Shown here piece after piece: positions 7,050-63,488 of a DNA stretch of 64,000 bases. Position 1 is the stretch's first letter. Each line of letters begins with the position of its first letter. The DNA is from an uncultured delta proteobacterium. GTDB taxonomy: Bacteria; Myxococcota_A; Polyangia; Polyangiales; Polyangiaceae. The DNA lies in contig CAWKKR010000011.1 in assembly GCA_963850305.1 (NCBI GenBank), positions 192,001 to 256,000 of the forward strand. Reading direction: 5' to 3'. Both the position numbers and the translations under genes were made by a program. The notes under the pieces were generated by a model. That model saw only the letters and a program-made list of their open reading frames with translations, did not search any database and was not told where the DNA came from.

Positions 7050-8519
7050 TTACTTGCGGCTGCCGAAGCCGCTGAACGGGTCCACTGGCGCCGGGGGCGC
7101 CGCGGGGGACGCTTCGGCCTTCGCCTTTGCCGGTTCGTGCGGATGCGCGTGAGTCACGACTCTTTCGGCGGAGTTGACCGCGCGCTTTTCCGCAGGCGGC
7201 ACGGCCGCCGGAGCCGCTGGCGGGGGCGGCTCCGCGACAGTCGGCAGAGTGGGAGCAACCGTGATCACCGCCGGCGCGGGTGCCGGTTTGGCTTCGACTT
7301 TCGCGGGCGGCTGCGGCGGTGGAGCGGGCGGCTCCGCCGCAAGGTGGGGAGTCGACATGCCGCTCGTAGCGGTGGCCGGCGGCGGACCCCCGTTCCTGAA
7401 TACGAGAAAGCCGACCACGATGGCGACTGCGCCGACCGCGACGCCCCCACCGATCAGACGGCCACGCCCGGCGGCTCCACTCGGCGGTGTGGCGGTGGCG
7501 GCACCCGAGTCGGTCCACGCAGCGGCCGTGAGCGCGTACGGCGCCTTCGAATCGCGCCGGGGCGGGGGCGCCTCGTTCGTGATGGATCCCCTGGACGAAA
7601 CTTTGAGCACGCGCCCCGCCCGCTCCACGTTCGCTCGGGTACGCGCCGGACCGAAGGGGGCCAGCGCGGAAGCGAACTCCGCGACGTTGGCAAAGCGTGC
7701 CGCAGGATCTTTCGCGAGCGCGCGGTTCACGGCGCTCTCGAGAGCTTCCGGGATCTCGCCGCGCACGCTCCGGATCGGAACAGGCTCATCCAGCAGCACC
7801 TTCGCCGAGAGCTCCGGGATCGATTCGGCGTAAAATGGCGGCTCGCCCGTCAGAAGTTCGTAGAGAATCACCCCGAGCGCCCACACATCCGTACGGGGAT
7901 CGACGTGCTTCGCCGACTTCATCTGTTCCGGCGACATGTAAAGCGGCGAGCCCATCATCGACGAAGTGCGGGTCAACGACGGATCGATCCCGGTCGTGCT
8001 CGTCACGAGCGCCTTCGAGATCCCGAAGTCGAGCACCTTGATGCGAACCGAGCCGTCGGGCTGCCGGGCGAGGAACAGATTCGCAGGCTTCAGGTCGCGG
8101 TGAACGATGCCGACCGAGTGAGCTTCGGCGATCGCGTCGCACGCTTCCAGGACGTACGCGACGGCTTCTTCGGCGGGCAGGGCCTTCCGCTCGTCCAGGA
8201 GCGCCGCGAGATCGCCGCCCTCCAGGTACTCCATCACCATGTAGGGAGCGCCGCTCTCCATCGTGCCGACGTCGATGACGCGCGCGACGTGCTCGCTCTG
8301 GATCTTGACGGCGGCGCGTGCCTCCCGAAGGAAGCGCTGCGCCGCCTCGTGCTGCTGCGAGTATTCGGGCAGGAGGAACTTGATCGCGACCCTGCGTTCG
8401 AGCTGCAGATCGACCGCGGCCACGACGACGCCCATGCCGCCTTCCCCGAGGACGCGGTCGACTCGGTACTTGCCGGCCAGGACGGCACCGGCAAGAACAG
8501 GGGCGCTCATCTGCGGCAT
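7050..8519 (-). CDS. Hanks-type Ser/Thr protein kinase with TM and Pro-rich C-terminus
   Basis: GEGGMG, VAIK, HRDLKPAN, DFG, YMSPEQ all intact. Start is one of 8510/8519/8522. Confidence 0.95.
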   Translation of the reverse strand: MPQMSAPVLAGAVLAGKYRVDRVLGEGGMGVVVAAVDLQLERRVAIKFLLPEYSQQHEAAQRFLREARAAVKIQSEHVARVIDVGTMESGAPYMVMEYLEGGDLAALLDERKALPAEEAVAYVLEACDAIAEAHSVGIVHRDLKPANLFLARQPDGSVRIKVLDFGISKALVTSTTGIDPSLTRTSSMMGSPLYMSPEQMKSAKHVDPRTDVWALGVILYELLTGEPPFYAESIPELSAKVLLDEPVPIRSVRGEIPEALESAVNRALAKDPAARFANVAEFASALAPFGPARTRANVERAGRVLKVSSRGSITNEAPPPRRDSKAPYALTAAAWTDSGAATATPPSGAAGRGRLIGGGVAVGAVAIVVGFLVFRNGGPPPATATSGMSTPHLAAEPPAPPPQPPAKVEAKPAPAPAVITVAPTLPTVAEPPPPAAPAAVPPAEKRAVNSAERVVTHAHPHEPAKAKAEASPAAPPAPVDPFSGFGSRK

Positions 8520-20063: not shown

Positions 20064-21845
20064 ATGCCGGGACCGAGACTGCTCGCCGGGCGTTACGCCT
20101 ACACGACCCGCATCCGCGGAACGGAGCGGACGATCATCTGGCTCGCTCACGACCGACTCACCGGCGGATCCGTCATCGCGAGCGTGCTGCCGGGACCGAG
20201 GGCCGCCGCGCTCGAAGCCGCAGTTGACGTCGAACACCCGCACGCGGCGACCGTCATCGCCGTCATCGACTCCGTGACGCCCGAGGAGATGCCGGACGTC
20301 GGGCCAATGGAGCCGGATGCGCGCGTCGTGGTCGCCGAGTGGTTCGACGGTGCGAGCTTGCAGCAGCGCCTGGACGCGAGTCCTGCGGCTCCGGAGCAGG
20401 CCGTGGAATGGATCGCCGATGTTCTGGACGCGCTCGCCGTGCTTCACGAGAGGGCGGCCGTGCACGGCGCGATCTCACCGCGTTCCATCGTCGTCGCCCG
20501 GGCGGACCGCGGCACGGTGCCCGTGCTCGCGCATCTCGTCGTGCCGCCGAGCGGCGTGTATTGCTCGCCCGAACGCGTCACCGGCGGCGGTCCTTCGGAG
20601 AGCGATGACGTCTGGGCCGTCGCCGCCACACTTTACACCGCGCTCTCGCGGCGACCGCCCTTTCGGGGCGCGACGCGCACCGAGCTCGCGCGCGCGATCG
20701 TCGCGGGAGCGCCAAAACCCATCGCGCACCTGGATTCCGAGCTGTGGGGCGTGCTCGAGCGGGCGCTCTCGTCCGACCGAAGGAGCCGCTTGCGCAGCGC
20801 CGCGGAGTTTCGAGACCTCCTGCGCAGCTGGCTCGACCGCTCCGGCGTGCCGAGCCTCGGTGACTTCGCGCCGGTGGAAGCGATCCCAGGCCAGAACGAA
20901 CCGCTGCCGAACGTCGGCGATTTGTCACTCGTGGCGGCCCTGGCGCGTCCAGACAGCGCGGAAGCGACGGCGCTCCTCAGCGTTCACCCAGCCTTCAGCC
21001 AGTCGTACCGCCCGCAACGGTCGGAGCCGCCGGTGGCCCCCTCGCCGGAATCTTCGCCCATCAGCGGGCCCTCCGCGCCGTCGTCACCGCCGCGGCCAGT
21101 CGTTACGGACCAAGCTGGTCCGCGTTCTTCGAAACGCCCGCCGCAACGACGGCGGTCGCGTGTGACCTCCGGTGCCTTGCTCGGCTTCGCGGCAGCCGCC
21201 GCGGCGGTCGCCGGACTCCTCATCGGACGATGGCACGCGAGCTCCGGACGCGGTGCTGAACCGTCGCGACCAGCGCCTGCCGCAGCGGCGAGCCTGACAC
21301 CGCCGACGGACGCCCAGGGTGTTCTTCCCCCGGGAGGGACTTCGAGCACGACCGTGCCTGGCGCCGTTCCCAGCGTGGCGGGGAGCACCGGCAAGGAACT
21401 CAACGCCTGCGTCGACGAAACCTTCGAGATGTTCAGACCAACCGCCAACCTCGGTTTTCTGTGCAAGGAGACGGACCTGTGGGGGTCGACACGCCGAATG
21501 GATCTCGAGGTCGGAAAACACGCTGAGGGAGAAGGCCTGGTCACCTGGGCGCACCTGGGTCGGTTCGATCTGGCCGCGACGGCCATTCTTCGCGAGCGTT
21601 GTTGCCCCGACGCGCCGGACTTCACCGCGGCCACGCCGAAGGGCGTCTGCGAGACCCTATCCCCTTCCTTGCACGAGCTCGCCAGGCACCCGTCGGCAGA
21701 AACGACGGACGCCTACGCCGCAAGTGTCGATTGCCTGCTCGGGCGCAAGGTCCGTTACCCGGCGGAATGGTGGGACCGCGTCGGCGCAAAGGCGTCAAGG
21801 ACGTACTTCGATACGTTCCTTTCGCGCGCCGTCCGCGCGAAGTGA
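20064..21845 (+). CDS. Ser/Thr kinase-like pseudokinase with TM and Cys-containing extracytoplasmic domain
   Basis: Kinase-fold remnants (LAGRY, VVAEWFDG, YCSPER, DVWAVAATLY...PPF), but HRDLKP is replaced by HGAISP and there is no Gly loop, VAIK or DFG. Confidence 0.85.
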   Translation: MPGPRLLAGRYAYTTRIRGTERTIIWLAHDRLTGGSVIASVLPGPRAAALEAAVDVEHPHAATVIAVIDSVTPEEMPDVGPMEPDARVVVAEWFDGASLQQRLDASPAAPEQAVEWIADVLDALAVLHERAAVHGAISPRSIVVARADRGTVPVLAHLVVPPSGVYCSPERVTGGGPSESDDVWAVAATLYTALSRRPPFRGATRTELARAIVAGAPKPIAHLDSELWGVLERALSSDRRSRLRSAAEFRDLLRSWLDRSGVPSLGDFAPVEAIPGQNEPLPNVGDLSLVAALARPDSAEATALLSVHPAFSQSYRPQRSEPPVAPSPESSPISGPSAPSSPPRPVVTDQAGPRSSKRPPQRRRSRVTSGALLGFAAAAAAVAGLLIGRWHASSGRGAEPSRPAPAAAASLTPPTDAQGVLPPGGTSSTTVPGAVPSVAGSTGKELNACVDETFEMFRPTANLGFLCKETDLWGSTRRMDLEVGKHAEGEGLVTWAHLGRFDLAATAILRERCCPDAPDFTAATPKGVCETLSPSLHELARHPSAETTDAYAASVDCLLGRKVRYPAEWWDRVGAKASRTYFDTFLSRAVRAK

Positions 21846-39255: not shown

Positions 39256-40242
39256 CTACCGAGCCGGCACGGTCGGCAAGTAGTCGTCGATCGGAGGCGC
39301 GTGCTCCACGATGCCGAGGTCGACGAGCTCCGTCGCGAGCGTCTCCCAGCGTTCGCGAGTCATCGAGCCGAGGCCGCGCGCGCCGTCGGGGCCCTCGATG
39401 AGGGGCTTTTCCGCGGCGGCCGCGGCGGCGAAGGTCTGGGCGTCCATCGTGGGGTTGAGCTTCTGCATGACGGCGTTCGTGCTGGCGGGGTTCGTGAGGT
39501 AGGTCGCCCATCCCTCTCGCGCGGAGTCGACGAAGGCTCTCACCGTGCCGGCGTGGCCGGTGAAGAAGGAGCGTTTCGACGATGACGACGCCGAGGTACG
39601 GGTCGAAGCCCTCGTCCGCGATGAGGAAGACCTGCGGGTCGCTGCCCTTCTTCCTCGCGGCGAGCGGCTCGCTGGTGACGAAGCACTGCTGGGCGAAGTC
39701 CTTGTCGGCCAGGAAGCGCGCGACGCCGCCGTCGTAGGGGACGACCTTCAGCTTTCGAAGCCGTACTTCTTCTTGAGGACGACGGCGTACGGGAGGCCGG
39801 GCTCGATCGCGAGCGTGCCGACCGTGAGCGCCTCGCCGAGCGTCCGGCGCCGCGGGAGGCGTGGGCCATGATGCCCTGCGGCGAGGTCTGGAACGTCGCG
39901 AAGACGGGCACGACGTCGGCGCCGCGCGCGCGCGCGATGAGGACTTCGTCGGCGCCGGCGACGCCGAAGTCGACCTTGCCGGACGCGACCATCTGCACGA
40001 CGGGCACGCCCGCGCCGCCGCCCTGGATCTCGACGTCGAGCCCCTGCTTCCGGAACGCGCCGGCCTCGCGCGCGGCGTAGAAGCCGCCGAACTCGGGCTC
40101 GGGCACCCAGTCGAGCGCGAGGACGCATCCCGCTCCCTGGGCTGCCGGGTTTCGGGGGCTCCTCTTCGAGCAGCCGGGGAGCGTGAGGGCGAGCGAGGCA
40201 GACGGCGAGGAGAATCGCGGAGACGAGCTTCGTTGGTTTCAT
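39256..40242 (-). CDS. ABC substrate-binding lipoprotein, NMT1/THI5/SsuA-like (multiple frameshifts)
   Basis: Fragments across frames: MKPTKLVSAILL, LDWVPEPEFGGFYAA, QMVASGKVDFGV, AQQCFVTSEP, GFDPY, GLGSMTRERWETL. Confidence 0.8.
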
Positions 40243-41018
40243 CGCGCGTCGCTTGCGGAGGGGTGCCAGCGCCGGAGCAGGAGGTGCCCCGCGAGGTTGA
40301 CGGCGCCGAAGAGCAAGAGGCCGAGGAGGGACGCAGAAGAGCACGGCCGCGAAGAGCAGGTCCGTGTCGAGCTGGCGGTACGCCGCGAGGACGGTGATGC
40401 CCGAGGCCCGCGGCGAGCCCGAGAAGCCGGCGACGAACTCCCCGACGATGGTGCCGATGACCGCGAGGCCCGAGGCGACGCGCAGGCCGGTAGATGCATC
40501 TGGGAGCGACGCCGGTAGCTCGAGCTTCAGCAGCATGGCGAGACGCGGCGCGCGCCGTAGAGGCGGAAGAGGTCTCGCAGCGCGGGATCGACGGAGCGGA
40601 GGCCGGCGAGCGTGCTCGCGATGACCGGGAAGACGGAGACGATGAGCGCCGAGACGGCCACCGCGCGCAGGCCCGGGCCGAACCAGAGCACGAGGAGCGG
40701 CGCGATGGCGACGATGGGCACGGTCTGGAGGAAGACGGTGTACGGGTAGAGCGCGCGCTCGAGCGTCCGCGAGGAGGCGAGCAGCGACGCCGACGAGCAC
40801 GCCGAGCACGGCGCTGAGCACGAAGCCGGAGAGCGCGGCGCTGCCGGTGACCCAGGCCGCGCGCGACGAGCGCGCCGGCGTCGACGCGCGGCCGGCGACG
40901 GCGCTCGGGGGCGGCAGGAGGTAGGCGCGGCATGGCGAAGGCCCGGACGAGGGACTCCCAGACCGGCGAGCAGGAGCGGCGAGGGCGATCGAGCGGCGGA
41001 ACGACGGGAGCGGGCCAC
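40239..41018 (-). CDS. ABC permease, SsuC/TauC-like (multiple frameshifts)
   Basis: LYPYTVFLQTVPIVAIAPLLVLWFG, LKLELPASLP..TGLRVASGLAVIGTIVGEF. Confidence 0.82.
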
Positions 41019-41019
41019 G

Positions 41020-41814
41020 TCAGGCGCCTCCCCGCTCGAGGCGCCTCGGAGAGGACGCGCGTCTCGCGGGCGAAGGCCGGCTCGGTGCGCAGCGCGTCGT
41101 GCGCTCGCGCGGCAGGTCGATGCGGCGCTCGGCGACGACCCGCGCCGGGCGCGCGGAGAAGACGACCGCGCGCTCGGCGAGGTACGCCGCCTCGTCGATG
41201 GAGTGGGTGACGAAGAGCACGGTCAAACCGAGTCGCGAGCCAGAGCTCGCGGAGCTGGTCGTCGAGGCGCTGCGCGGGTGAGCTCGTCGAGCGCGGCGAA
41301 GGGCTCGTCGAGCAGGAGCAGGCGCGGGCGCGTGACGAGGGCCCGCGCGAGCGAGACGCGCATCCGCATGCCGCCGGAGAGCTCGCCGGGGCATCCGGGG
41401 TGCGCGTCGGCGAGGCCCACCTCGGCGAGCAGCGGCGCGCGCGTCGCGCCGCGCTCACCGGTCGCCACGCCCGCGAGCTCGAGCGGGAGCGCGACGTTGG
41501 CGAGCACGGTGCGCCACGGGAGCAGGTGCGCGTCCTGGAAGACGAACGCCACGCGTCCGCCCGCGGGCCGCCTTCGAGCGTCATCGTGCCGGCGTCGGCG
41601 CGAGTCGAGGCCCGGCGACGAGCCGGAGGAGCGTCGACTTGCCGCAACCCGACGGCCCGAGCAGCGCGACGAACGCACCCGCCGCAACTTCGAGATCGAG
41701 TCCATCGAGCACGATGCCACCGGCGAACGCCTTGACGAGACCCGACGCGCGGACGTGTACGCCTCTCCGACTCGCAGAGACTCTCGACGGATCGACATGG
41801 CTTGCGGCGCTCAT
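41020..41814 (-). CDS. ABC ATP-binding protein, SsuB/TauB-like (multiple frameshifts)
   Basis: [49 protein letters not shown] spread over three frames. Confidence 0.88.
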
Positions 41815-43046
41815 GTGATCCCTCGGCTGCCGGTCGGCTCCAAACCGAGCGCGAGCGCAGCGGACACGAGGGTGATGCCCGCGAGGCATCGGAAGCCGAG
41901 CGCGTAACCCCCGACGTCGAGCAAGCGCCCGAGCACTTCTCCGGAGAGGATGCCGGCGACGTAGCCCACGGCGTCGATCAGCGCTGCCGCCGTCGCGGCC
42001 GCGCTCACCCCGCCGGCCTCGACGGCGAGCACGCCGGCCAGCAAGCTGTACGGCCCGTACACCAAAAGCCCGACCGCGGCGATGAGCGGGACGCAGCGGC
42101 CCGGCGCCGTGCGGCCGACTTCGGGGAGAAGGGCGATGACGACCGCGAGGAGCGCGAGAACGACGGCGATGGAGAAGCGCCGCGCGCCCGGCGGGGTGCG
42201 GTCGTAGGCGACGCCGGTCACGAGGATGCTCACGGCGCCAGCGAGATCGAAGCCCGTCGATTGGAGCGCCGCCCTCGAGAGCGAGTGCGCTCCCATGGTC
42301 TCTATCGAAGCCAGAAAGTCCACGCTCCAGGTATTGAATGATTCCCGGACGAGAGTGAGCGAGAAGCTCAGCGCGCAGATCACAAGGAACGAGGGACGCG
42401 AGAGCAGCGAGCGGACGGAAGGCGTGCGGACACCGGCTGCTTCGACGTCGCGCGCGGTCCGAGGCCCCGCTCGCACCGACAGCGCCACGCCGATGGCGAT
42501 CGGGACGACGACGAGTGACGGCACGAACAGGATCGCCCGGAATCCACCGCCCTGATCGAGCACCGCGCGAGCGAGGAGCGTGGCGAAGACTCCCCCGAGC
42601 ACGTAACTCAGACTGAGAAAGGCGACGACCGAGCCCTGACTCTTGCCGTACCAGGTCGGGACGAGCTTCATCATCGACGGCCAGCCGCCCGCGCCGGCGT
42701 AGCGGTTCGCCGCGTAGGCGAACGTTAGCAAGAACAGAGTTGGGGATAGCGCGCCGAGTACGCCGAACCCCGCGACCACGAGAAGCGCCGCGACGAACCC
42801 CGCCCGCCCGCCGACCCGATCGACGACCGGTCCGAGCGTGAACTTGCCGAGCGCGTACGCGGCGGTCCCGACGCTCGCAACGCGGCCCACCTGGGCCCTG
42901 CTCGCGCCGAACGTCTGCTCGAGGAGCGGTACGGCGACGGAGAGGTTCTTCCGGCAAAGATAGATGCCGACGTAGCCGACCGCGAGCGCCGCGATCGTGG
43001 TCCTCGCGTCCCGCGGCGTCTCCTCGACGATCGAGTCCGCTCTCAT
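41811..43046 (-). CDS. MFS transporter, GlpT/UhpT (OPA)-like
   Basis: [30 protein letters not shown]....V..WY, YGPYSLL; about 12 TMs. Confidence 0.85.
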
Positions 43047-44279
43047 GCCACCCAGAACCAGAGCGCGAAGCGGGCGATGAAAAAGCCCTGGATCGTCGCG
43101 AAGGCAGCGATCGTGCAGGCCGTGAGCAGGGGTCGACGGCGGAGCACGACCGCCAGCGCCGCAAAGAGCGGAAAGATCACGACCAGGAACCGCGGCATGG
43201 ACTGGAGCGGTTGAAGGCGCGACGGAGTCATCAGCGGCAGAACGACGCCTGCGACGGCAAGCATTCCGTAGCTCGGGCGCAGGCGGAGAACCGCGACGAC
43301 CGCGAGCGCGATACCGCCGAGCGCGGCAAGAAGGTTGTAAGCGTGCGCCTCGAGGAACCCACCGGGATAGTCGGGAAGCCTCGGGAACCCGCCAGGGAGT
43401 GGTTCGAGATACGGCGGGTGCCCGGGCAAGAGCACGCGCACGCCGTCGATGAGGCCAACCCATGGCGGTTCGATGCGTCGCTCCCAGAACCGCTGAGCGC
43501 GGCTGAATGCCCACGGATCGCCGACGGCGTTCTTCAGGATGTGGAGCACGATCGGGAGAGCGAGCAGGGGCAAGAGAGCGCCCACGATGGCCACTGGCGG
43601 CGTCTTGAAGGCCGCCACGCGGCCTTCTCTCGACCACAGACCTTGCCATGTCGTCGACTCGGGTTCCGCATGCCTCGCGACGCCGGACATCCACGCTTCG
43701 ACGAGGAGCGCCGGGACGAGCGCGAACCCGGTCCATCGGGTGAGTGTCGCGACGAGCGCCGCGAGGCCGGCCGAGATCCACCAACCGCGCCGGGCGGCGG
43801 CGAACGAGCCCACGGTGAACATCAGGAAGATCGATTCCGTGTAGGCCGCGTGGAAGTAGAAGGCCGTCGGAAACGTCACGAGCAGCACGGCGGCCATCGC
43901 CGAGTCTTCGGAGCCGAGATCCTCGCGGAGCAGCCGGACGAGGATCGAAGAGCGTCACGGCGAGCGCCACCCACGAGATGGCGCACGCGGTGACGAGGAG
44001 ATCTCCCCCGAACACGGGCGAGAAGAAGCGAATCGTCCACGGATACACGGGCAGGAACGCGGTCGAGGCATCGTCCGCGAAGTAGCCGAGATGGGCGATC
44101 CTGAGGAACCATTGACCGTCCCAGTGTTGCCAGGGGTCGAACAGCAGGCGCCCGAGGCCCGAGTGGACCGCCGGGAAGTACGCAGGGACGGGGAGCGCGT
44201 GAAACTCGAACATCGTGAGGATCGCGTAGCCGCCGACGAACGCCGGCAAGAGCCATGCGAGCGCATAAATGCCGCTCAC
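43043..44279 (-). CDS. GT-C mannosyltransferase, PIG-V-like (frameshift near 43945)
   Basis: [48 protein letters not shown]. Confidence 0.85.
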
Positions 44280-54507: not shown

Positions 54508-56037
<1,530 letters not shown>

Positions 56038-56182
56038 GGGTTCCGGGCTGTCCTCTGGTGCGATGGTACCTCAGTCCCCGTCGGCCTTCAGAGATTCCGT
56101 CCTGAACGGACGACGAGCGCTTCGTACCATTCCCGTCAGGCGCCCGGGCCTGCGGAGTTGCGAGCTCGGGGCGCCGGGCCCG

Positions 56183-59701: not shown

Positions 59702-61585
59702 GTGGGACTGGAGCTGGCGCCGGGTTCTGTCATCGCTGGGCGGTACCAGCTGGAGCGCCAGCTCGGTCAGGGGGGCATGGGGGTCGTCTGGTCCGCGATG
59801 CACACCGTGACGCGCAAGAGGGTGGCGCTGAAGCTCATCAAGGGCTCGGTCCATCTCCGGCCGGAGCTTCGAGCCCGCTTCCTGCGCGAGGCTCGCGCCG
59901 CAACCGCCGTGGAGCACCCGAACGTCCTCGAAGTGCACGACGTGTTCGAGCTCGACGATGCGACGCCGGTGATGGTCATGGATCTGCTCAAGGGGGAGAC
60001 CCTCGCCCAGCGTATCCATCGCGAGGGCAAGCTGTCCCTCGCGGATACCGCGACCGTCTTCGTGCAGGTCGTCTCGGGGGTCGGCAAGGCGCACGCGGTC
60101 GACGTCGTGCATCGAGACCTGAAGCCGGACAACGTCTTCCTCGTGCAGACGGGGAACGGACCGTCGTCGGTGCGGATTCTCGACTTCGGCATCGCCAAGC
60201 TCGTCGGCGCCGACGACCCGGCCACCGAGAGCGGCGTGATCACGGGCACAGGAACGATGCTGGGCACGCCCTGCTACATGTCGCCCGAGCAGAGCTTCGG
60301 AGAGAAGTCGATCGATTGCCGCACCGACATCTGGTCGCTCGGCGCCATGCTGTACGAGTGCTTGACGGGGTGCCGGCCCGTGGAGGGCGACAGCGTCGGT
60401 CAGGTGGTGAAGCGGCTGCTGAGCGACGGCATCACGCCGATCGAATCGATTCTCCCCGAGCTTCCGACCGACGTGGTGCAGGTCATCGGCCGGATGCTGA
60501 ATCGCGAGCGCGAGCGGCGCCCGCAAGACCTTCGCGAGGTCGTCCGCGTTCTGGCTCCCTACGCGAGTGTCGGCGCGCCGGAGTTCGGGCCACCCGGGTC
60601 CGAACGCATCGCGCAGGGCACGCTCCCGGCCGCGTACGCGCACGAACAGCAAGCGGAACCGGCGCCGGCGCCCGCCCCCTATCGCTCCTCGCTCGGACAT
60701 ACCTCGAGCGTCGACTCGTCGCGACCGCCCGGACCCGCGTCGTTCATGGCCAGGGTGACGGCCGTCTGCGCGGTCGCCGCGATAGCCGCCTCTGCCGCAG
60801 CCTTCCGGTGGCTCAACACCTCCGAGACGCCGCCCTTGTCACGGTCGGTCGAATCGACGCCGCTGCTGGCCACGCAGGTTCCAGCGATTGAGGCCCCGGC
60901 GGCGACGAAGTCTCCCATCGCCGCGCACACGTCCAGCGATTGGCCCGCGGGGCGCGGCTCCGTGCCCCGCTCGTGCGCCGAAGTTCGCAAGCTCACGCAC
61001 GAGGTGGAGGACGGCACGTACAAACTCGACGTGGACGGCGCGGGGCCCCAGGCTCCTTTCTCCGTCTACTGCGAGGGCATGAGCGACCCATCACGGGAAC
61101 CGGCGGAGTACATTTCCCTCGCCCGTGGGGCGGCCAGCGGCGACCGGGACGCGAACTCCACGACCTTCGTCTGGTCGGGTGGAGCCTGCCATTGTCCCGA
61201 ACTGACGAGGCGCTTCACCAAGGTGAGGATGGACCCCGTGACGATGACGGTGGACATCTCCGACGGACGGTTTGCCAGGTACACGCGGGCACGCGCGTGC
61301 GAGCACGCCGACCAGAACCACTGCGGCGCGGCTCAGGACCTGTCCTGGGGCACGGCGGGGAGCTGCCGCGCCGACAGGGACACGAGCGGTCGAGGGAACA
61401 TCGACCTGCGCGACACGCCGTTCTCGGTCGCGCCCGACGTCGAGTTCGAGGCGACGGGCCACGGCGCCGCCGGACACGCGTCGTTTTCTTCGGAGCGCAA
61501 GGTCGTGACCCTCGTGGGAGGGGGCCGGTGCGGTTCCCTGGTGCCCGGCACCGCTCCGGCGCTCCACCTGTCCCGAGACCGTTGA
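59702..61585 (+). CDS. Receptor-like Ser/Thr kinase with TM and C-terminal GON domain
   Basis: Intact kinase motifs, TM VTAVCAVAAIAASAAAF, then PRSCAEV...EDGTY...VYCEGM...PAEYISL...FTKVRMD...GTAGSC...NIDL..TPF...GGGRCG. Confidence 0.9.
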   Translation: MGLELAPGSVIAGRYQLERQLGQGGMGVVWSAMHTVTRKRVALKLIKGSVHLRPELRARFLREARAATAVEHPNVLEVHDVFELDDATPVMVMDLLKGETLAQRIHREGKLSLADTATVFVQVVSGVGKAHAVDVVHRDLKPDNVFLVQTGNGPSSVRILDFGIAKLVGADDPATESGVITGTGTMLGTPCYMSPEQSFGEKSIDCRTDIWSLGAMLYECLTGCRPVEGDSVGQVVKRLLSDGITPIESILPELPTDVVQVIGRMLNRERERRPQDLREVVRVLAPYASVGAPEFGPPGSERIAQGTLPAAYAHEQQAEPAPAPAPYRSSLGHTSSVDSSRPPGPASFMARVTAVCAVAAIAASAAAFRWLNTSETPPLSRSVESTPLLATQVPAIEAPAATKSPIAAHTSSDWPAGRGSVPRSCAEVRKLTHEVEDGTYKLDVDGAGPQAPFSVYCEGMSDPSREPAEYISLARGAASGDRDANSTTFVWSGGACHCPELTRRFTKVRMDPVTMTVDISDGRFARYTRARACEHADQNHCGAAQDLSWGTAGSCRADRDTSGRGNIDLRDTPFSVAPDVEFEATGHGAAGHASFSSERKVVTLVGGGRCGSLVPGTAPALHLSRDR

Positions 61586-61592
61586 GTCGCCC

Positions 61593-62640
61593 ATGCCGCT
61601 GCCCACGACCGTCCACTTTCGACCCCGCGCGCCCCGTGAGGTCCTCGTTGCGCTCTCGGTGGCCTGCGCCGGGCCTCTCGCCGGGTGCAGCCCCGACCCT
61701 CTGGATTATGCCGCCGATGCCTCGTCGCTCGCGCCACAACGTGCCGCGGTCGACGAGCCCTTGCAACCGCTGCAGCCGGGCCCCGCCGTCGATCCCGCTC
61801 GCGCCCGGATCGGCGAAGCGCTCTTCTCCGATCCGTCGCTGTCGGGAGACGGCACGGTGGCCTGCGTGACGTGCCACCCCCTCGACCGAGCCGGTGCCGA
61901 TGGTCTGACGCACTCGCGCGGAGTCGCCGGCCACGAGACCGCGCTGAACACGCCCACGATCTTCAACTTACCATTCTTGTTCAGATACAACTGGAGCGGG
62001 GCGTACACGACCCTCGAAGAGGAGTTCGACGCGCCGGTGACGAAGACCTTCGTCACGACGTGGCCGGAGATCGAGCGCAAGGTTCGCGAGAAACCGGAGC
62101 TGACCCTCGAGTTCGCGGCGGCATACTCCCCTGGCGGCGTCTCGATCGCGAACATCAAGGACGCGCTGGCGAGCTACCTCGAGACACTGATCACCCCCGG
62201 ATTCTCGCTTCGACGCGTTCCTGCTCGGCGACCCCGATGCCCTGTCCGTCGCCGAACGGCGCGGCTACGCGCTGTTCAAGGACCTCGGCTGTTCGAGCTG
62301 CCACCAGGGGACCGCCGTGGGCGGCGGATCCTTCCAGAGGTTCGGCGTCATGCAGGACTACTTCGAGGGGCGCACCGGTCCGGAGCCGCTGGGCGCGTCC
62401 CTCGGCCGCTTCAACACGACCGGCCTCGCCTCGGATCGCTACGTGTTCCGGGTCGCGAGCCTCCGGAACGTTGCCGAGACGGCGCCGTACTTCCACGACG
62501 GCTCCGCCGCGACGCTCGAGGACGCGGTGTCGACGATGGGTCGCGTCCAGCTCGGCGAGGAGCTGTCCAACGACCAGGTCGGGCTGCTCGTCGACTTCCT
62601 GGACTCTCTCACCGGCACCTTCCACGGGAGCCCGCTTTGA
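61593..62640 (+). CDS. Diheme cytochrome c peroxidase/MauG-like lipoprotein (frameshift near 62197)
   Basis: LAGC lipobox, LSGDGTVACVTCH, NTPTIFN. Removing one C in the CCCCC run gives TPDSRFDAFL...GCSSCHQG...FRVASLRNV..TAPYFHDG. Confidence 0.92.
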
Positions 62641-63488
62641 TGCGCGTGGGAATGGTCGTCGCGCTGGTCCTGGCACTCGGCGGCGTGTCGGCGCTCGAGC
62701 GCAACGTCCACGGCCGCCTCGAGCACGAGCACGCGACGCTCCGCGTCCTCGACACGCTCGCCGCAACCGACGCGGACCTGGCGACGAGCATCCTCGAGCT
62801 CCGTGCGGGAACGCTCGCCTACTTCGATCCGATTGTCCGCGACGTCAAACTGCTGCGCCAGGTGTCTGCGCTCCCCAGTCCGGCGGGCGAGGCGGACTCC
62901 GGGCAATGGCAACGGCAAGCCCTCGCTCGCCTCGCGGCGGATCTTCGAACCCAGGAAGACTGGGTGGAGACGCTGAAGACCGATCACTCGCTCCTCCGGA
63001 ACTCGTCCCTGCACTTTCCGATGGCCGCCGCGACACTCGAGCGAAACAGCGCCGCGAGCCCTGCCCGGCTCGACGCGCTCCGCACGGCTCTCGCGCGCTA
63101 CTCGATCGGACCGAGCAAGAGCCTTTCCGAGCAAGCGGCGCACGAGGTGGACGCCCTCGAAGCCTCCCCCGCCCCCGCCGATGCCGTCGGAGCCGAAGCG
63201 CGCCGGTCACTCATCGGCCACGCGCGGAGCATCGTCGAGCGACGTGAGCGCGTCGACGATCTGGTCCGCAAGATCCTGCGATCCCCCACCCGCGCCGGCA
63301 TCGCGGAGCTGGTCCAGTTCCACCGTCGCGTCGAGAGCCGCGCCCTGGTCGTGCTCATCGCCGCCCGCACCGTGCTGCTGGTCCTCGGCCTCCTCACGGC
63401 GATCGCGCTCGGCGAACTGCTGATGCGATGGCGCCCCCGGGCAAGCGTGCCCCCGGTGCGCGCCTCGGCGCGACCGGCGGACGGCTGA
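62640..63488 (+). CDS. DAHL-like periplasmic sensor-domain membrane protein with no cytoplasmic output domain
   Basis: TM, then ILELRAG...YFDPIV, VETLKTDHSLLRNSSLHFP, HARSIV, second TM and a ~20-aa tail. TGATG-coupled to the peroxidase. Confidence 0.7.
   Translation: MRVGMVVALVLALGGVSALERNVHGRLEHEHATLRVLDTLAATDADLATSILELRAGTLAYFDPIVRDVKLLRQVSALPSPAGEADSGQWQRQALARLAADLRTQEDWVETLKTDHSLLRNSSLHFPMAAATLERNSAASPARLDALRTALARYSIGPSKSLSEQAAHEVDALEASPAPADAVGAEARRSLIGHARSIVERRERVDDLVRKILRSPTRAGIAELVQFHRRVESRALVVLIAARTVLLVLGLLTAIALGELLMRWRPRASVPPVRASARPADG

Follow-up and report, generated by a model that had tools for sequence, protein, structure and literature searches.

A Hanks-type receptor kinase with a GON ectodomain, encoded ahead of a di-haem peroxidase and a DAHL protein in a Polyangiaceae genome

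Introduction

What does a GON domain, described from animal extracellular proteases, do on a bacterial protein kinase? The question is raised by a gene in a 64,000-nucleotide stretch of DNA (hereafter the window; contig CAWKKR010000011.1, positions 192,001 to 256,000, assembly GCA_963850305.1) of an uncultured delta proteobacterium of the family Polyangiaceae. A first-pass annotation, made from the letters of the window without database searches, had described the product as a receptor Ser/Thr kinase with an animal-type GON ectodomain, used as a periplasmic ligand-binding sensor. The receptor kinase and its bona fide GON domain stood up to closer analysis; the qualifier “animal-type” did not. 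The surrounding genes, moreover, suggest a kinase that cooperates with a DAHL membrane protein and a di-haem cytochrome c peroxidase (CCP), not one that senses a ligand by itself. We put at roughly even chances the reading that the kinase is the transmitter of a periplasmic CCP/DAHL sensor, in which the GON domain would provide the docking surface and peroxide or redox state the signal.

Architecture of the kinase and identity of its ectodomain

The protein comprises the following segments (TM, transmembrane):

59702..61585, + strand: kinase-GON gene, an open reading frame (ORF) of 627 residues with a GTG start and its stop codon at 61583-61585
59744..60526, + strand: cytoplasmic protein kinase domain, residues 15-275 (Pfam Pkinase, E 5.6e-46)
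60527..60733, + strand: Pro/Ala/Ser-rich cytoplasmic juxtamembrane linker, residues 276-344 (by composition, without Pfam match)
60734..60814, + strand: single predicted TM segment, residues 345-371 (Kyte-Doolittle, 19-residue window, peak 1.82)
60815..60964, + strand: Pro/Ala/Ser/Thr-rich periplasmic linker, residues 372-421 (by composition)
60965..61582, + strand: GON domain, residues 422-627, with 8 cysteines (Pfam GON)

The Pkinase match scores 157.5 bits against a Pfam cutoff of 31.7, and all kinase motifs are present: GQGGMG (residue 22), VALK (41), HRDLKPDN (137), DFG (161) and SPE (194). Judged by these motifs, the protein is a Hanks-type (eukaryotic-like) Ser/Thr kinase with an intact catalytic motif set. 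The kinase side is assigned to the cytoplasm and the GON side to the periplasm, since the former needs ATP and the C-terminal domain is rich in cysteines. A TM segment lies over the threshold at the equivalent place in the related proteins P0155, P0007, P0014, P0158 and P0159, and below it in P0008. The predicted product is a receptor kinase that crosses the membrane once and exposes a cysteine-rich GON domain to the periplasm. The GTG start at 59702 is supported by the ortholog P0155, whose own start aligns with it; the database version of the gene (P0003, 602 residues) begins 25 residues later, at an internal ATG (59777, Met26), and loses most of the glycine loop. In a Pfam scan of the whole protein, Pkinase-type and GON matches were the only ones, with no protease or thrombospondin-type domain. 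An adhesin or a secreted enzyme is ruled out as the product: kinase domain and TM segment lie in the same frame, and no stop codon separates them.

The layout, consisting of a cytoplasmic Pkinase domain, a juxtamembrane linker, a single TM segment and an extracytoplasmic C-terminal domain, is that of the PknB/Stk1 PASTA kinases. The NCBIfam model PknB_PASTA_kin (NF033483) aligns over residues 8-372 with 243.4 bits, which is below its cutoff of 450, and there is no PASTA match. Unlike in PknB/Stk1, the ectodomain is a GON domain, and the gene is coupled to a CCP and a DAHL gene. The kinase-TM-GON architecture is new among receptor Hanks kinases.

The GON family (PF08685) is matched at residues 422-623 over positions 1-197 of the 199-position profile (68.9 bits versus a gathering cutoff of 22.6, E 7e-19), and the 206-residue domain scanned alone reaches 75.6 bits. 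The strings from which the first-pass annotation had recognised the domain (PRSCAEVRKL, EDGTY, VYCEGM, PAEYISL, FTKVRMDPVTM, DGRFAR, GTAGSC, GRGNIDL and GGGRCG) all occur in that order in the translation of 60965-61582, and the Pfam matches to Pkinase and, over nearly the whole profile, to GON, together with the one TM segment, confirm its description of a receptor Ser/Thr kinase ending in a GON domain of about 200 residues. The concern that the match might amount to no more than a generic fibrinogen-like motif at the N-terminus is ruled out: taken by themselves, the N-terminal 59 residues of the domain reach 34.1 bits (profile 1-50) and the C-terminal 147 residues 46.1 bits (profile 90-197), each above the cutoff.

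The domain is composed of an N-terminal fibrinogen-like subdomain (~58 residues) and a beta-rich C-terminal subdomain. Its 8 cysteines, at GON positions 4, 36, 75, 77, 112, 120, 134 and 189, are all invariant in an alignment of nine sequences of its clade (see below), wherever these sequences cover them, and among 50 bacterial GON sequences C4, C36 and C134 reach a conservation of 90% or more. As the domain lies beyond the TM segment and carries eight conserved cysteines, a disulfide-rich state in the oxidising periplasm fits, in line with the placement proposed originally; four disulfides are predicted from these residues.

An AlphaFold2 model of the GON domain based on the alignment of 50 sequences has a mean predicted local distance difference test (pLDDT) score of 95.9 and a predicted TM-score (pTM) of 0.91, and the C-terminal 147 residues modelled alone reach a pLDDT of 94.8. 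Searching the PDB with the GON sequence gave 0 matches at E <= 10, and Foldseek retrieved no solved structure at E <= 0.001 with either the whole domain or its C-terminal subdomain. In a VIA-align comparison with 48,161 chains, the whole domain reached a best Z of 2.8 and the C-terminal subdomain one of 3.4 (8okh_B), the rows being generic beta-sandwiches. The models are confident and lack a convincing solved structural relative, so that GON has no experimental template, a weak or absent match being no proof of a new fold. The N-terminus is more familiar: a superposition with the beginning of intelectin-1 and of fibrinogen-related domains covers the first ~52 residues (52 columns, root mean square deviation 3.5, probability 0.91-0.93), which agrees with a match of residues 424-458 to the NCBIfam family GGGWT_bact (“fibrinogen-like YCDxxxxGGGW domain”; 32.6 and 34.3 bits, cutoff 30). 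Fibrinogen_C gave no Pfam match at E <= 1. The likeness to fibrinogen-related and intelectin domains is confined to the first ~35-52 residues, whereas the other ~150 differ from that fold.

The two halves of GON are separable: some proteins repeat the C-terminal half only (profile about 87-190), and some alternate halves in tandem (examples are the proteins P0025, P0098, P0112 and P0054 and the loci L003, L019 and L025-L029). The giant Fibrinogen_C/COLFI proteins P0020, P0051 and P0078 match only through the N-terminal ~45 residues of the domain.

Gene neighbourhood

The kinase-GON gene is followed on the same strand by two genes and preceded by one:

61593..62640, + strand: di-haem cytochrome c peroxidase (CCP_MauG, Pfam), 8 nt downstream of the kinase gene, in two frames
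62640..63488, + strand: stand-alone DAHL membrane protein of 282 residues (Pfam DAHL, 109 bits), its ATG overlapping the CCP stop codon
58600-59447, + strand: NudC-type NADH pyrophosphatase (NUDIX-like, zinc ribbon and NUDIX domains), the next gene upstream of the kinase gene

The tight spacing and the start/stop overlap suggest co-transcription of kinase, CCP and DAHL genes. The DAHL protein has hydrophobic segments at residues 1-21 and 231-264 and carries no output domain; a search with it revealed one other stand-alone relative, P0165, of 62% identity. GON and DAHL are each single-copy in the genome of the window, 1 kb apart, and genome G717 of the same genus has neither.

The order kinase-GON, CCP, DAHL on one strand recurs in locus L030, which belongs to a metagenome-assembled genome labelled Polyangiaceae bacterium, i.e. 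to the same family and a different genus; the spacing there is 90 nt plus overlap, versus 8 nt plus overlap in the window. The upstream gene is not shared, being the NUDIX gene in the window versus a CorA transporter in L030. Between the two loci, identity amounts to 66% for GON, 62% for the kinase domain, 53% for the whole kinase-GON protein and 49% for DAHL; GON is the best-conserved part of the kinase-GON protein.

The CCP gene shows an apparent 1-nt frameshift near 62195-62206: its first part is read in the frame of 61593, its second haem-binding half in the frame of 62206-62640. Compared with P0162, the intact L030 ortholog, which has no break at this point, the two parts show 64% and 78% identity, and they contain no other stop codons. 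One public soil-metagenome DNA run holds 7% of the words of the region, and its contigs do not cover 62115-62241; the listing of sequencing reads contained no RNA run that holds the region. The frameshift is either an assembly error or a very recent mutation.

Large kinomes are to be expected in myxobacteria, and the 6.26 Mb genome holds ~106 Pkinase matches. Large kinomes are also described for this group in PMC2887360. Three other Pkinase matches lie in the window, at about 54511-56070 (- strand), 7692-8468 (- strand) and 20280-20792 (+ strand), one of them on the strand opposite to the kinase-GON gene and ~3.6 kb upstream of it. Positions 40001-44000 of the window have a GC content of up to 0.74 and a strong AT skew of 0.27-0.31 over ~4 kb, unlike the remaining window.

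Survey of DAHL loci

A survey of related genomes provided 24 distinct DAHL loci: 61 genomes of the family contributed 9 that exceed the Pfam cutoff, and 13 genomes of the class sample another 15 (L063 being the L030 contig). In 19/24 the gene immediately upstream, on the same strand, encodes a CCP, and in 19/24 the DAHL protein is fused to a transmitter of its own. By output, the loci are distributed as follows:

HisKA plus HATPase_c: 7 loci
Hybrid histidine kinase with receiver domain: 4 loci
Hpt plus HATPase_c: 4 loci, all four without upstream CCP
Guanylate_cyc: 3 loci
SpoIIE: 1 locus
Output unassigned: 2 loci, L061 and L078 (the latter at a contig end)
No output domain: 3 loci, the window, L030 and L079

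The recurring core, seen in L056-L062 and L065-L077, is a di-haem CCP followed by a two-TM DAHL protein with varied transmitters. Compared with these modules, the DAHL protein of the window lost or never had a transmitter, and the Hanks kinase-GON protein is encoded ahead of the pair. All three output-less DAHL proteins (3/3) share their gene string with a Hanks kinase; the loss of the DAHL-fused transmitter co-varies with the presence of such a kinase. In two loci with a transmitter, L066 and L072, a Hanks kinase gene lies directly after the DAHL-Hpt-HATPase gene.

Locus L079 (genome G686:C15, 2822-5775) stems from a different family (f13) than the window. Its 709-residue frame contains a Pkinase domain (75-309), a TM segment (363-384) and a CCP_MauG domain with two haem motifs. 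An output-less DAHL protein of 276 residues comes next, the GTG start of which overlaps the stop codon of the fusion gene, such that the two are translationally coupled. The genome has no GON, searched for with the domain of the window as query at E <= 1e-10. Ahead of the fusion gene lies a second CCP-like gene (1496-2818). L079 resembles the window in that a Hanks kinase is coupled to a CCP and an output-less DAHL protein; it differs in that the CCP itself is the ectodomain of the kinase, in place of GON. In the lineage of L079 the CCP is covalently the ectodomain of the kinase, and in the lineage of the window a kinase with GON has a separate CCP as neighbour. Read from its domain order, L079 connects kinase and CCP by domain fusion, independently of the lineage of the window. 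No description of a kinase with a CCP ectodomain came up, no literature search having been made for one. For DAHL, the accessible literature contained no description of CCP/DAHL modules and a single relevant item, an alignment-methods paper that uses the family as test data.

The association does not extend to GON proteins at large: near 50 other GON loci, inspected with ~1.5 kb of flank each (168 kb in total, some overlapping), neither CCP nor DAHL was found. The CCP/DAHL link is therefore specific to the kinase genes and no general property of GON.

A Hanks kinase as the proposed transmitter of a CCP/DAHL sensor

The proposed coupling of the kinase to CCP and DAHL, a new hypothesis, starts from what is directly observed, namely how the protein is built, which domains it contains, the order of the genes and its co-variation across genomes. 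That the proteins touch, what they sense and which way the signal runs is what we infer. The system could operate in the following manner: The CCP/DAHL pair would sense a periplasmic signal, most simply peroxide or redox state, a choice suggested by the established activity of bacterial di-haem CCPs, which reduce H2O2 using their two haems. The GON ectodomain would contact CCP or DAHL in the periplasm, and a change at this contact would alter dimerisation of the kinase and autophosphorylation of its activation loop, the route by which PknB-like receptor Hanks kinases are activated. The Hanks kinase would thereby take over the transmitter role of the histidine kinase, nucleotide cyclase or PP2C phosphatase to which DAHL is normally fused in related bacteria.

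Several points weigh against this proposal. The window and L030 belong to the same taxonomic family, and their shared gene order may partly reflect inheritance; since the two are kin, their synteny counts as one observation, with L079 apart. Independent support for a link of kinase and CCP/DAHL comes from one further locus, L079, which lacks GON, and the 50 other GON loci show that GON is not generally a partner of CCP or DAHL. Within the kinase-GON clade, the three-gene string is seen in the contexts of the window and L030, and it may not extend to the more distant P0007, P0008, P0014, P0158 and P0159. With ~106 Pkinase matches across the genome, a kinase gene beside a given locus is nothing unusual. 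Should the CCP frameshift prove genuine, the genome of the window may be losing the module. Finally, the suggested coupling is read from gene order and domain fusion. A predicted complex of the DAHL periplasmic part, CCP and GON, all from L030, had an ipSAE of 0.00 in two runs, made without controls and with 7-10 alignment rows for CCP and DAHL; it speaks neither for nor against binding.

In its most far-reaching form the proposal reads as follows: a di-haem peroxidase reports to a Hanks kinase instead of a histidine kinase within a three-part periplasmic sensor, GON docks on the haem protein or on DAHL, and the GON domain of animal ADAMTS9/20 is an offshoot of a large, old bacterial family. 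This full combination is speculative, and we regard it as rather unlikely to hold in all its parts. If true, it would give GON its first defined molecular function, that of a protein-docking module.

GON as a widespread bacterial module

The main alternative is that the kinase senses on its own: GON would directly bind an extracellular glycan or protein, much as the PASTA domains of PknB-type kinases bind cell-wall fragments, and the CCP and DAHL neighbours would be coincidental or loosely related. The company that GON keeps elsewhere lends this idea some weight. A HMMER search of 1.84 billion cluster representatives with the 206-residue domain as query returned 846 clusters at E <= 0.001, of which 396 reach E <= 1e-10 and 28 reach E <= 1e-30. 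When the 149 best non-self representatives of the 846 clusters and P0155 were scanned with Pfam (GON called at E <= 1e-4), GON was found in 79/85 and 63/65 of the scanned proteins, i.e. in 141/149 of the best non-self representatives. Its partners there include Peptidase_M4 with WSC, Peptidase_S8, Stig1 repeats, Laminin_G_3, PKD, Big_9, fn3, SH3_3, polysaccharide deacetylase, a type IX secretion system (T9SS) sorting tail and PASTA; judged by the Pfam matches, such partners are typical of bacterial secreted and surface proteins. The promiscuity of GON (on M4 and S8 peptidases, polysaccharide deacetylase, Laminin_G_3, PKD, Big, fn3 and the T9SS tail) is that of binding modules, its first ~52 residues look like the beginning of lectin domains of the intelectin and fibrinogen-related types, and the 50 other GON loci do without CCP and DAHL. 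Autonomous sensing leaves unexplained, however, why output-less DAHL proteins occur in Hanks-kinase strings in 3/3 cases and why kinase and CCP are fused in L079; the tight spacing and start/stop overlap, which suggest co-transcription, also speak against mere coincidence. We consider an independent ligand sensor possible, if on the doubtful side.

Another link of GON to cell-envelope sensing modules is seen in P0122 (1091 residues), which combines an N-terminal GON with PASTA and FKBP-type isomerase domains.

Taken by its domain matches, GON is a widespread bacterial module with many architectures, though no paper was found that states so. In the searchable literature, as far as it is accessible, “GON domain” appears only in animal ADAMTS biology or in passing mentions, and for “GON domain” together with “bacteria” no title or abstract indicated a paper on a bacterial GON. 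A paper citing PF08685 places it among domains exclusive to human extracellular-matrix proteins. With the Pfam model, GON is found in 17/401 sampled genomes of the phylum, that of the window counted; with the domain of the window as query (E <= 1e-10), relatives appear in 51/401 genomes of the class, at <=40% identity save the window itself.

The kinase-GON clade

As a second alternative, GON might be a structural ectodomain that holds the kinase dimer together or anchors it in the envelope, without any sensing. Dimerisation is regarded as the main mode of regulation in some receptor Hanks kinases, and the tandem GON copies of many bacterial proteins would suit a packing or scaffold role. The evidence that bears on this view comes from the distribution and conservation of the kinase-linked domains. 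A maximum-likelihood tree (IQ-TREE quick search, LG+G4) was calculated from 167 GON domain rows, none of them animal; 52/222 domain hits that do not span the model, the cluster-mates P0153, P0154, P0156 and P0157, and P0002 and P0003 as duplicates of P0001 were left out. The GON of the window falls into a clade of 14 rows with a Shimodaira-Hasegawa-like approximate likelihood ratio test (SH-aLRT) support of 99. Kinase sequence is present in 9/14 rows; for the remaining five (P0006, P0012, P0013, P0015 and P0016) the entry is short and sets in within the linker or TM region, and one of these, P0013, matches the interior of the full-length kinase P0159.

Kinase sequence occurs in 6/149 of the best non-self representatives, at full length in P0007, P0008 and P0014 and N-terminally cut in P0004, P0011 and P0089. 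Further full-length kinase-GON proteins are P0155 (source name “protein kinase [Polyangiaceae bacterium]”), P0158 and P0159, the latter two being Ser/Thr kinases by source name with Pfam GON in their precomputed annotation. A profile search among longer proteins added only these last two kinase-GON proteins and one fibrinogen-type protein. P0089 falls elsewhere in the tree, among Stig1-GON proteins, and probably represents a second, independent kinase-GON fusion. The closest relatives of the kinase-GON protein, at 45-66% identity, are other myxobacterial-type kinases.

No kinase-GON ortholog was found in 33 sampled genomes of the family of the window, in G717 (same genus, 100% complete) or in 60 relatives of the L030 genome. 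Among 51 GON loci with ~1.5 kb flanks, kinase and GON share one ORF only in those of the window itself (two loci) and of L030; a contig search with a smaller alignment yielded L030 and a weak partial match, L031. By tree and genome survey, kinase-GON fusions form a small, patchily distributed clade. A purely structural role sits badly with these data: orthologs differ less in the ectodomain than in the kinase domain, and kinase-linked GON has persisted as a clade, which together argue for a specific function of GON. We therefore hold mere dimerisation or anchoring to be improbable.

Relation to the animal GON domain

ADAMTS9, ADAMTS20 and Caenorhabditis elegans GON-1 carry a domain of the same Pfam family over the whole profile, likewise cysteine-rich and extracytoplasmic; the likeness is one of Pfam profile, and it is on shared profile membership that the presumed link of bacterial and animal GON rests. 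In the animal proteins GON forms the C-terminus of a reprolysin-type metalloprotease with thrombospondin repeats, whereas here it follows a kinase and a TM helix. Animal GON is reported to function in endoplasmic reticulum-to-Golgi transport (PMC3338439), a role without bacterial counterpart.

A recent transfer of an animal GON into the bacterium is scarcely credible: print literature, as far as accessible, treats GON as an ADAMTS and extracellular-matrix domain only, and the nearest large clusters in the ESM Atlas are eukaryotic GON/COLFI (a lead only), but 846 clusters match, the best 149 non-self representatives are of bacterial architecture, the nearest relatives are myxobacterial-type kinases, 51/401 class genomes are positive, and the GC content of the gene region (0.70) matches that of the window. 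The label “animal-type” accordingly overstated the surprise; no ADAMTS-type partner domain occurs among the 149 best non-self representatives and P0155 (Pfam), and a few GON proteins with EGF or Sushi domains may be of eukaryotic origin. The bacterial family may plausibly be relevant to the origin of the animal domain.

Implications

To our knowledge, very few signals are known for Hanks kinases, and the gene context described here supplies a concrete signal hypothesis for one of them. CCP and DAHL would constitute an undescribed, recurring sensing module, in which histidine kinases, cyclases, phosphatases and Ser/Thr kinases can each serve as transmitter. GON, a domain of unclear molecular function in print, becomes open to simple bacterial biochemistry and structural work, and the existence of a bacterial GON family reframes the question of where the animal domain came from.

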